Below, piece after piece: positions 13,628 to 15,106 of a stretch of DNA of 44,385 nucleotides. Position 1 is the first letter of the stretch; the number at the start of each line of letters is the position of its first letter. The position numbers and the translations under genes were made by a program. The stretch covers positions 1 through 44,385 of the forward strand of contig JAYSVF010000238.1 in NCBI GenBank assembly GCA_043718695.1, written 5' to 3'. Under the pieces are notes generated by a model. It was not told the DNA's origin and did no database searches. It saw only the letters and a list, made by a program, of their open reading frames with translations. The stretch is from Acidimicrobiia bacterium (GTDB taxonomy: Bacteria; Actinomycetota; Acidimicrobiia; Acidimicrobiales; JANYDT01).

Positions 13628-14920
13628 ATGAGCAATATTGAAGCGGTAATCGGTCGCGAGGTTTTAGATTCCCGCGGGAACCCCACCGTTGAAGTGGAAA
13701 TCCTGCTTGAAAGCGGTGCTCGGGGCCGAGCCATCGTGCCTTCTGGCGCCTCAACCGGCGAACACGAAGCCGTTGAGCTACGCGATGGCGGCAAGCGCTT
13801 TATGGGCAAAGGCGTGTCAAAAGCCGTCGCCAACGTAAACACTGAAATTCGTGATTTGCTCACCGGCCACGAAGCCCTCGATCAGCGCACGATCGATTTC
13901 GCCATGATCGATCTCGACGGCACCCCGAACAAAGCCCGTCTCGGCGCCAATGCGATGCTTGGCGCCTCAATGGCCGTTGCTCGTGCGTCGGCAGTGGAGC
14001 TTGACCTTCCGCTGTACCGCTACATCGGAGGACCTAACGCCCACGTGTTGCCGGTCCCAATGATGAACGTACTCAACGGTGGCGTCCACGCCGACAACAC
14101 CATCGACATGCAGGAATTCATGGTCATGCCTGTGGGTGCAGCCTCGTTCTCCGAAGCCCTGCAGTGGGGTGTAGAGACCTATCACACGCTGAAGAAACTG
14201 CTTCATGATCGGGGCCTTTCCACTGCAGTGGGAGACGAGGGTGGCTTTGCCCCTAACTTGGCCCTCAACGAAGACGCCGTGAAGCTTCTCGTGGAAGCTA
14301 TCCAACTAGCTGGCTACACCCCAGGTGAGCAACTAGCTATTGCGCTCGATCCGGCCATGAGCGAGTGCTACAAGGGCGGTCAGTACGTATTGGCTGGCGA
14401 AGGACGATCCCTCTCCAGCGAAGAAATGGTTGCCTACTGGGTTGAACTAGCCGGTAAGTACCCAATTGTGTCCATCGAAGACGGCATGGCCGAGAACGAC
14501 TGGGACGGGTGGGCCTCACTCACCCGCGCCCTTGGCGGCAAAGTGCAGCTTGTTGGTGACGATCTTTTCGTGACCAACTCCGAACGCCTACAAATGGGTC
14601 TTGATCGCAAGACCGCGAACTCCATTCTGGTCAAGGTCAACCAAATCGGTACCCTCACCGAAACCCTTGATGCTGTTGGCCTTGCCTCACGCAACGGTTA
14701 CACCGCTGTTATGTCGCACCGCTCCGGCGAAACCGAAGACTCAACCATTGCTGACTTGGCCGTCGCTACCAACTGCGGCCAAATCAAAACCGGTGCCCCG
14801 GCACGTTCTGATCGGGTTGCGAAATACAACCAGCTCCTGCGCATCGAAGCCGAACTCGGCGATTCGGCGGCGTACTGGGGCCGATCTGGGCTCACCCCAC
14901 GAGCCGCAATGACTGTCTAG
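13628..14920 (+). CDS. eno: Enolase
   Basis: [35 protein letters not shown] and [20 protein letters not shown]. Confidence 0.99.
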
Positions 14921-15106
14921 ATCTAGCAATGACGATCTAGACCTAGCAACGACTGTCTAGATCTAGCGAATGACCGTCTAGAACTAGCAATGACTGTCTA
15001 GATCTAATAATGACGATCTAGACCGAGCAATGACTGTCTAGATCTAACAATGACCGTGTAGATCTGGCAATGACCGTGTAGATCTTGCAATGACTCTCTA
15101 GATCCG
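14906..15106 (+). repeat. Tandem array of ten ~20-bp units (consensus GCAATGACTGTCTAGATCTA)
   Basis: Units start at 14906, 14926, 14946, 14966 (21 bp), 14987, 15007, 15027, 15047, 15067 and 15087. The first unit contains the last eno codons and stop. Confidence 0.97.

Follow-up and report, generated by a model that had tools for sequence, protein, structure and literature searches.

A 20-bp tandem array between eno and ftsB in an Acidimicrobiia genome: probably a young minisatellite copied from the end of eno, with inherited start-stop mini-ORFs

Bacterial minisatellites of the VNTR type, known from MLVA typing, consist of intergenic units of tens of base pairs that are arranged head to tail and carry higher-order duplications; they change faster than their flanks, and close relatives differ in whether they have them. 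Mycobacterial MIRUs, the units of which are several-fold longer than 20 bp, are repeats located between co-oriented genes with a short ORF in each unit, and lambda bar is a regulatory or toxic minigene. According to PMC12548453, MIRUs are dispersed and apparently mobile, and the MIRU ORF ends at -4 nt relative to the start of the gene that follows. Regulatory minigenes such as lambda bar and mg2 in axe-txe (PMC8708949) are single ORFs of 2-3 sense codons situated upstream on the mRNA, the translation and cis effect of which were proven by reporter genetics. In termination-reinitiation coupling, the stop and start codons overlap as ATGA or TGATG; PMC12548453 describes translational coupling as weakening with the stop-start distance, such that increases of less than 20 nt can cut it substantially. 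Our literature searches found no paper joining enolase, divIC and a tandem repeat; those on tandem mini-ORFs and reinitiation gave no such bacterial array among the matches listed, as judged by title or the opening lines of the abstract, and those on MIRU and VNTR returned nothing beyond typing papers and a review on coupling.

The array described herein lies between the genes of enolase (eno) and of an FtsB/DivIC-like septum formation initiator (ftsB), within the window, i.e., the whole 44,385-nt stretch of DNA that was analysed. The order mfd-mazG-eno-divIC-DUF501-ppx is an actinobacterial gene order, and a Pfam scan of 27 window ORFs (all of at least 180 aa except a CoxS-like one) assigned as neighbours mfd, PPIase, mazG, dehydrogenase, a PALP+ACT enzyme, eno, divIC and cox genes. 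The FtsB/DivIC-like product has a long N-terminal extension rich in Pro, Gly, Arg and Ser. The coordinates of the features are summarized in Table 1.

Table 1. Features of the eno-ftsB junction (positions are those of the window)
Feature	Position	Strand	Basis or description
eno (enolase)	13628..14920	+	Pfam Enolase_N 4.1e-56, Enolase_C 7.6e-128
Tandem array (minisatellite)	14906..15106	+	10 head-to-tail units, each of 20 bp except unit 4 (21 bp); consensus GCAATGACTGTCTAGATCTA
Higher-order block 1 (units 1-4)	14906..14986	+	Tandem Repeats Finder 81-bp period and unit-by-unit table
Higher-order block 2 (units 5-8), which repeats block 1 in diverged form	14987..15066	+	Tandem Repeats Finder and unit-by-unit table
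Units 9-10	15067..15106	+	Unit-by-unit table; alignment with G002 and G003
Conserved 20-nt leader AGAAACGCCACTTCCCC	15133..15152	+	Invariant alignment columns in G000, G002 and G003
ftsB/divIC-like septum formation initiator	15153..15869	+	Pfam DivIC 1.6e-10, residues 121-191

Tandem Repeats Finder detected at 14906-15104 a period of 20 (9.9 copies, 80% matches, score 249) and a second period of 81 bp (2.5 copies, 86% matches, score 287), and a 17-mer of the unit gave 9 matches at up to 3 mismatches versus 0.02 expected from 100 shuffles, none of which gave 9. The units share the general core ATG-ACN-NTN-TAG, in which ACG stands for ATG in unit 3. The cores of units 1-5 read ATG ACT GTC TAG, ATG ACG ATC TAG, ACG ACT GTC TAG, ATG ACC GTC TAG and ATG ACT GTC TAG, and those of units 6-10 ATG ACG ATC TAG, ATG ACT GTC TAG, ATG ACC GTG TAG (units 8 and 9) and ATG ACT CTC TAG; the peptides encoded, in order of the units, would be MTV, MTI, TTV, MTV, MTV, MTI, MTV, MTV, MTV and MTL. 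In the unit-by-unit table, the ten cores, with TAG in 10/10 and ATG in 9/10 units, were the same as those read in an earlier note on this DNA. Its further reading, that starts follow the preceding stop at about 8 nt and that the frame shifts between most units, was confirmed as well: the gap is 8 nt (9 nt ahead of the 21-bp unit 4), and since 20 cannot be divided by 3, successive units change frame. Having a TAG in every unit and such a period, the array is not one continuous frame, and no ORF of at least 50 aa was found to run across it.

The units are closely interrelated. Units 1, 5 and 7 are identical, units 2 and 6 have the same core variants (both ACG ATC...ACC), ACC is common to units 4, 8 and 9, units 8 and 9 both carry ACC GTG, and unit 9 is a near copy of unit 8; between blocks 1 and 2, unit 1 equals unit 5, unit 2 differs from unit 6 in three columns, and unit 3 from unit 7 in one. 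Since the units are not independent, they represent fewer mutations than the ten cores suggest. The palindromes TCTAGA and AGATCT are present in most units, and as CTAG is its own reverse complement, the other strand carries TAG triplets too. The units abut directly, without unique spacers of the CRISPR type. Read-through of the eno TAG was considered and rejected, as a TGA follows in the eno frame three codons past the TAG.

The beginning of unit 1 was found to be the end of eno itself, GCA ATG ACT GTC TAG (14906-14920), encoding AMTV before the stop, where the kin have GCC/GCA ATG CGC ACC GCC TAA/TGA (AMRTA before the stop). A MAFFT alignment of the window with the kin eno end introduced a single 3-nt gap, at CGC, and placed ACY, GTC and TAG opposite the kin ACC (Thr), GCC (Ala) and TGA; units 4, 8 and 9 have ACC as in the kin. 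The six bases that open the unit are GCAATG in 6 of the 10 units, and the other openings are GCAACG, GCGAATG, ATAATG and ACAATG. Because eno ends in GCA ATG...TAG and the units restart with GCAATG or a one-step variant, the ATG and TAG of the units would be copies of the Met and stop codons of eno. As judged from the alignment, descent of the GCAATG part from eno appears beyond doubt. The comparison of ACTGTCTAG with the kin ACCGCCTGA gave a modest likeness (5/9 bases, by hand count), and the other nine bases may likewise be homologous to the eno end. At the opposite end, unit 10 terminates in ...ATCCG and continues into a unique flank alignable with the kin (G003); this unit probably formed the 3' boundary of the array from the outset.

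In the 24 kin junctions examined, divIC adjoins eno, and an in-frame ftsB start was located -4 to +14 nt from the eno stop in 22 of them, the start nearest the eno stop having been chosen, which favours short distances. These 22 junctions suggest that a tight eno-ftsB juxtaposition is ancestral. In the subclade formed by this genome (G000) and its congeners G002 and G003, where the spacer measures 232, 136 and 89 nt, respectively, this juxtaposition is, by the sequences compared, already lost. The two congeners, with Eno 97% and 96% identical, are without the array; their spacers are of other sequence and hold no mini-ORF chain, and that of G002 contains a 12-bp repeat in 2.6 copies. The 20-nt leader conserved in all three (Table 1) stands directly upstream of the ftsB ATG and offers no in-frame start. 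Promoter-like sites were absent from 13300-16200, and the four terminator-like sites scored in the same interval were all on the - strand and no more than in shuffles.

When the unit was searched for at up to 3 mismatches, its own genome gave 7 matches, all within the array, and 26 of the 27 other family genomes gave none; the remaining one had a single 3-mismatch match, located elsewhere. Neither the exact 20-mer nor a two-unit degenerate pattern had a match in metagenome_contigs and genome_contigs, from which the records of its own genome may be left out. Judging from this distribution, the array is recent and strain-specific or lineage-specific.

Of the sequencing runs X1-X20, four were compared with the window, namely X1, X3 and X4 of one study (P1) and X5, a freshwater sample with a near-identical strain, of another. 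In X1, which may be the source sample, a single 1535-nt contig from Logan's separate k=31 assembly covered 14818-15500 with 0 differences. In X3, a pair of contigs with a 14-nt overlap covered all units, again with 0 differences, and X4, covering 14500-14999 and 15058-15500, had one difference, at 14702, and none inside the array. In X5, the flanks showed 0 differences in 14500-14637 and 1 in 15241-15391, whereas a 151-nt contig over 15036-15185, 71 nt of which are array, showed 10. Six of these ten differences were listed, all in units 8-10, whereas the other four may be in any column; among those listed none fell in the 79-nt unique flank, so that the overall flank had 1 difference in 368 nt, going by the differences listed. 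The X5 contig stops inside the array, and cover in this run is missing over 14874-15009; neither this gap nor that of X4 over about 15000-15057 carries weight as evidence. The difference rates of array and flank were significantly distinct (Fisher P=7e-8), and remained so when the 4 unlisted differences were put in the flank (P=0.003). This X5 variant, set against the near-perfect X5 flanks, thus indicated that the array is present in at least two studies and is changing far faster than its surroundings. The array alters the C-terminal tail of Eno, extends an already uncoupled spacer to 232 nt, and evolves much faster than its flanks.

These properties are in good agreement with those of bacterial minisatellites, namely, a tandem unit in the 10-100 bp range, head-to-tail intergenic arrangement with a higher-order duplication, unit-sequence polymorphism without a continuous frame, faster change than the flanks, and presence or absence differing between close relatives. 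Unlike typical cases, it is sequence variants that are seen here and not copy-number polymorphism, and the unit starts inside a housekeeping gene, the last codons of which it rewrites. With MIRUs, the array shares its position in an operon of actinobacterial type, between co-oriented genes, and a short ORF in each unit; its unit, however, occurs at one locus only (in its own genome, with 26/27 family genomes having none), and its ORFs are of 3 codons and 8 nt apart, the last stop lying 51 nt from ftsB and not at -4. The array thus has neither the dispersal nor the -4 nt coupling of MIRUs. The short ORFs resemble regulatory minigenes in their size and upstream position on the mRNA, whereas the known ones are single and experimentally proven, and the array is ten copies recognized from sequence alone. 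Likewise, termination-reinitiation overlaps are the likely ancestral state of the eno-ftsB junction, as in 22/24 kin, but the junction has opened to 232, 136 and 89 nt in this subclade, and the array restores no unbroken stop-start chain.

Considering all of the above, we regard the array as a probable young, lineage-specific, hypervariable minisatellite of the VNTR type, copied from the end of eno and carrying inherited mini-ORFs. In this scheme, a 20-bp segment comprising the last codons of eno (Ala-Met-Thr-Val), the stop and the next 5 nt would have been duplicated head to tail through slippage or unequal exchange, followed by recopying of a block of about four units (81 bp), as suggested by the 81-bp period, and of single units. 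The unit ATG would stem from the Met codon of eno, here termed penultimate, the unit TAG from the eno stop, and the Thr and Val/Ile/Leu codons from the Thr-Ala codons of eno. With ATG and TAG descending from eno, the mini-ORFs would therefore be inherited and not kept by selection for translation. Ribosomes restarting 8 nt past the eno stop would drop out after a few units, and the array would therefore act at most like any long untranslated spacer. We infer the mutational mechanism and the neutrality of the array from these comparisons; the row of start-stop mini-ORFs has most likely been inherited as a by-product, without a regulatory role. The neutral amplification of the eno stop region, which the earlier note had given as the other possibility, is accordingly the explanation favoured by the GCAATG restarts, the alignment with the kin eno and the absence of the array in the congeners. 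If so, the locus would provide a clean case of tandem duplication from the last codons of a gene yielding start-stop mini-ORFs by descent, and would call for caution in small-ORF or 'attenuator' calls made from sequence, given that start-stop periodicity can be pure inheritance. It would also illustrate how one subclade opened a tight eno-ftsB junction into a fast-evolving, repeat-prone spacer.

Among the alternatives, the array transcript might form a row of hairpins that stabilise the 3' end of the eno mRNA, make a processing site, or insulate ftsB translation, a reading we consider improbable. For the region 14890-15155, a folding energy of -69.1 kcal/mol was obtained (z=-2.76; 1/200 shuffles as good), units 1 and 2 as well as units 5 and 6 pair without mismatch over 9 bp (GUCUAGAUC with GAUCUAGAC) around 10-nt loops, every unit contains self-complementary hexamers, and the changes of units 2 and 6 in columns 9, 10 and 17 turn a wobble or mismatch into Watson-Crick pairs with the neighbouring unit. 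The real array, however, folds at -53.2; a tenfold repeat of unit 1 reaches -79.7, and 98% of 300 shufflings of the unit order (mean -57.3) also fold more strongly, while tenfold repeats of a random 20-mer with matching composition come out at much the same value (-53.5, sd 20.8). Since the real array folds worse than homogeneous or reordered ones, the pairing was eroded and not improved by divergence, and the unit 2/6 variants were rejected as selected compensatory changes. Two of the three 'compensatory' changes are, furthermore, a single inversion of the 8-mer GTCTAGAT, which may have arisen by template switching at a quasi-palindrome. An Rfam 15 scan of 13000-17000 gave 0 matches at E<=1, the + strand has no terminator-like site, and the array is not conserved in the kin. 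RNA folding thus shows no sign of selection, and the structure is not maintained.

Alternatively, the array could be a contingency-type locus, namely a fast-mutating, copy-number-variable block of palindromic stop and restart codons that sets the spillover from eno to ftsB; this, too, seems improbable. As eno is a very highly expressed glycolytic gene and ftsB an essential divisome gene, array length or unit sequence would then set how far eno translation or the stability of the mRNA 3' end spills over to ftsB, producing heritable but reversible FtsB dosage settings between strains. The array would be of wider importance only if it tunes FtsB dosage, in which case it would represent a new kind of bacterial contingency locus.

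A related proposal, which the earlier note had put forward as a termination-reinitiation relay or attenuator tuning divIC, is that eno-terminating ribosomes restart 8 nt on and hop along the mini-ORFs, the copy number setting the ftsB supply, perhaps with peptidyl-tRNA drop-off. Its appeal lies in the ATG of 9/10 and the TAG of 10/10 units with the constant 8-nt gap, and in a first mini-ORF that coincides with the end of eno, which is probably well translated. In addition, short ORFs can bring ribosomes to a downstream gene (PMC12548453), and txe is subject to the cis effect of a minigene of two codons (PMC8708949). The locus nevertheless gave this relay no support, and we hold it very unlikely. 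In unit 3, the P1 runs compared (X1, X3 and X4) all have ACG, so that the chain is broken after two steps; the last TAG (15099-15101) lies 51 nt before the ftsB ATG (15153) with no in-frame start between; and the 8 nt ahead of the ATGs (ATCTAGCA or near variants) are, by reading, neither purine-rich nor Shine-Dalgarno-like. Direct reading found no GGAGG-like stretch before the unit ATGs, although the GGAGG standard may not be that of the host. Moreover, ATG and TAG are already explained by descent from eno, and the congeners, which lack the array, have long spacers without a mini-ORF chain.

The coding-like substitutions on which this proposal drew were indeed seen, but their non-randomness was nominal (P 0.035-0.07). 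Variable columns numbered 10/20 overall and 1/6 in ATG plus TAG (hypergeometric P=0.07), a binomial test on 15 minor states gave P=0.035, and 28/300 arbitrary triplet pairs were equally conserved; variable columns in the core (4/12) and the spacer (6/8) did not differ significantly (Fisher P=0.17). These P values are to be taken as nominal, the ATG/TAG columns having been picked post hoc and shared variants being inherited via block duplication. Because the invariant columns form A.GAC and T.TAGA.C, the TCTAGA palindrome accounts for the TAG columns as well as the stop codon does, and a weak constraint on the ATG/TAG triplets or on the overlapping palindrome is conceivable. In the comparison with relatives and other runs, to which the earlier note had looked for the substitution pattern, the conservation of ATG/TAG persisted nominally when X5 was included (P=0.038; 16/300 triplet pairs equally conserved); in one 'Thr' codon, X5 has AGC in place of ACC, a change at the second position, and the array is absent in the kin.

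Chains of this kind can, in addition, arise by chance. A survey of the genome identified 94 arrays with a period of at least 10 and at least 4 copies, 24 of which have a period that 3 does not divide. In 5 of these 24, each unit yields an ATG..stop ORF, which is of at most 3 codons in 2 arrays, namely the eno-ftsB array and C169:16649-16715 (M-H-L-stop, about 4 units). Correspondingly, 5.0% of random 20-mers of genome composition, when tandemly repeated, give mini-ORF chains of at most 3 codons.

As 20 bp is about two helical turns, the array could also present phased DNA sites (TCTAGA or CTAGATCTAG palindromes in each 20 bp) to a dimeric regulator or nucleoid protein, like iterons or centromere-like repeats, which appears scarcely probable. 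TCTAGA is found in 8/10 units by hand count and is rare in the genome (187 sites versus about 780 expected from base frequencies), the invariant columns T.TAGA.C surround the palindrome, and the G+C content of the unit is 40% (hand count) as against 56.7% in the genome. No initiator or partition gene is adjacent, however, and none of the 27 window ORFs scanned with Pfam is a replication or partition gene. The 10-bp palindrome recurs only once elsewhere in the genome (C300:8636), and thus no regulon is visible; the kin are without the array, and the palindromes follow from duplicating a CTAG-rich stop-codon region.

Finally, although the draft genome is metagenome-assembled (398 contigs, 79.7% complete) and tandem repeats are often misassembled, there is next to no likelihood that the array is an assembly artefact, a concern raised in the earlier note and answered by the sequencing data: the longest exact repeat within it (22 nt) is shorter than usual assembly words, the X1 contig spans it and X3 covers all its units with 0 differences, X4 covers 14500-14999 and 15058-15500, and X5, from another study, has a divergent form of the array on a contig that extends into the unique flank on the ftsB side.

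The junction between eno and ftsB was compared in 24 related genomes. In 22 of these 24 kin, an ftsB start was located between -4 and +14 nt from the eno stop, and long spacers were found only in G000, the genome holding the window (232 nt), and in its two closest kin, G002 (locus L009, 136 nt) and G003 (locus L010, 89 nt). Since small, unrelated tandem repeats (2-2.6 copies) were present at four of the 24 kin junctions, the eno-ftsB junction seems to be repeat-prone; this observation covers L009 and L010, and also the kin loci L019, L032, and L034.

Within the mini-ORF array of the window, units 2 and 6 were shown to share a variant core, GATCTAGAC, and reverse-complementing this core gives exactly the GTCTAGATC carried by the units next to them. 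Inversion of an 8-mer accounts for two of the three changes in the variant core, a pattern suggestive of a template-switch mutation at a quasi-palindrome. CTAG was revealed to be rare across G000, with 5132 sites versus 16768 expected from the zero-order model and 6302 from the Markov model, and TCTAGA occurs at 187 sites in the whole genome. The 201-bp array by itself contains 12 CTAG and, as counted by hand from the unit table, eight TCTAGA.

Short tandem arrays were abundant throughout G000, in which 94 arrays having a period of at least 10 and at least four copies were identified; their units were mutually unrelated as judged by eye, and the period was not divisible by 3 in 24 of the 94. 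A second chain of tripeptide mini-ORFs was observed on C169, another contig of this genome, the units of which read ATG CAC CTC TAA with a gap of 2 nt from each stop to the next start. The further tandem repeats of the window are listed in the table below together with an insert of about 26 kb, which breaks the gene series mfd, PPIase, mazG ... eno, divIC ... DUF501, ppx between divIC and DUF501.

Coordinates of the array, other tandem repeats and the insert
Feature	Position	Copies	Context or content
Mini-ORF array	window 14906-15106		
Unit 2	window 14926-14945		
Unit 6	window 15007-15026		
9-bp repeat	window 15376-15411	4	within low-complexity N-terminal part of ftsB
88-bp repeat	window 20236-20419	2.1 (94% matches)	between CoxM-like and SHMT genes
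9-bp repeat	window 33332-33424	10.7	within HEAT-repeat ORF
9-bp repeat	window 35723-35768	4	AAA_5/VWA_CoxE intergenic
14-bp repeat, unit TAAACATGCACCTC	G000 C169:16649-16715	4.8	second mini-ORF chain
Insert (~26 kb)	window 16073-42361		CoxS/CoxL/CoxM-type genes, SHMT, luciferase-like monooxygenase; 1658-aa DUF3686/AAA protein, HEAT-repeat protein, AAA_5, VWA_CoxE; peptidase M23, XdhC, MobA-like, CoxG genes
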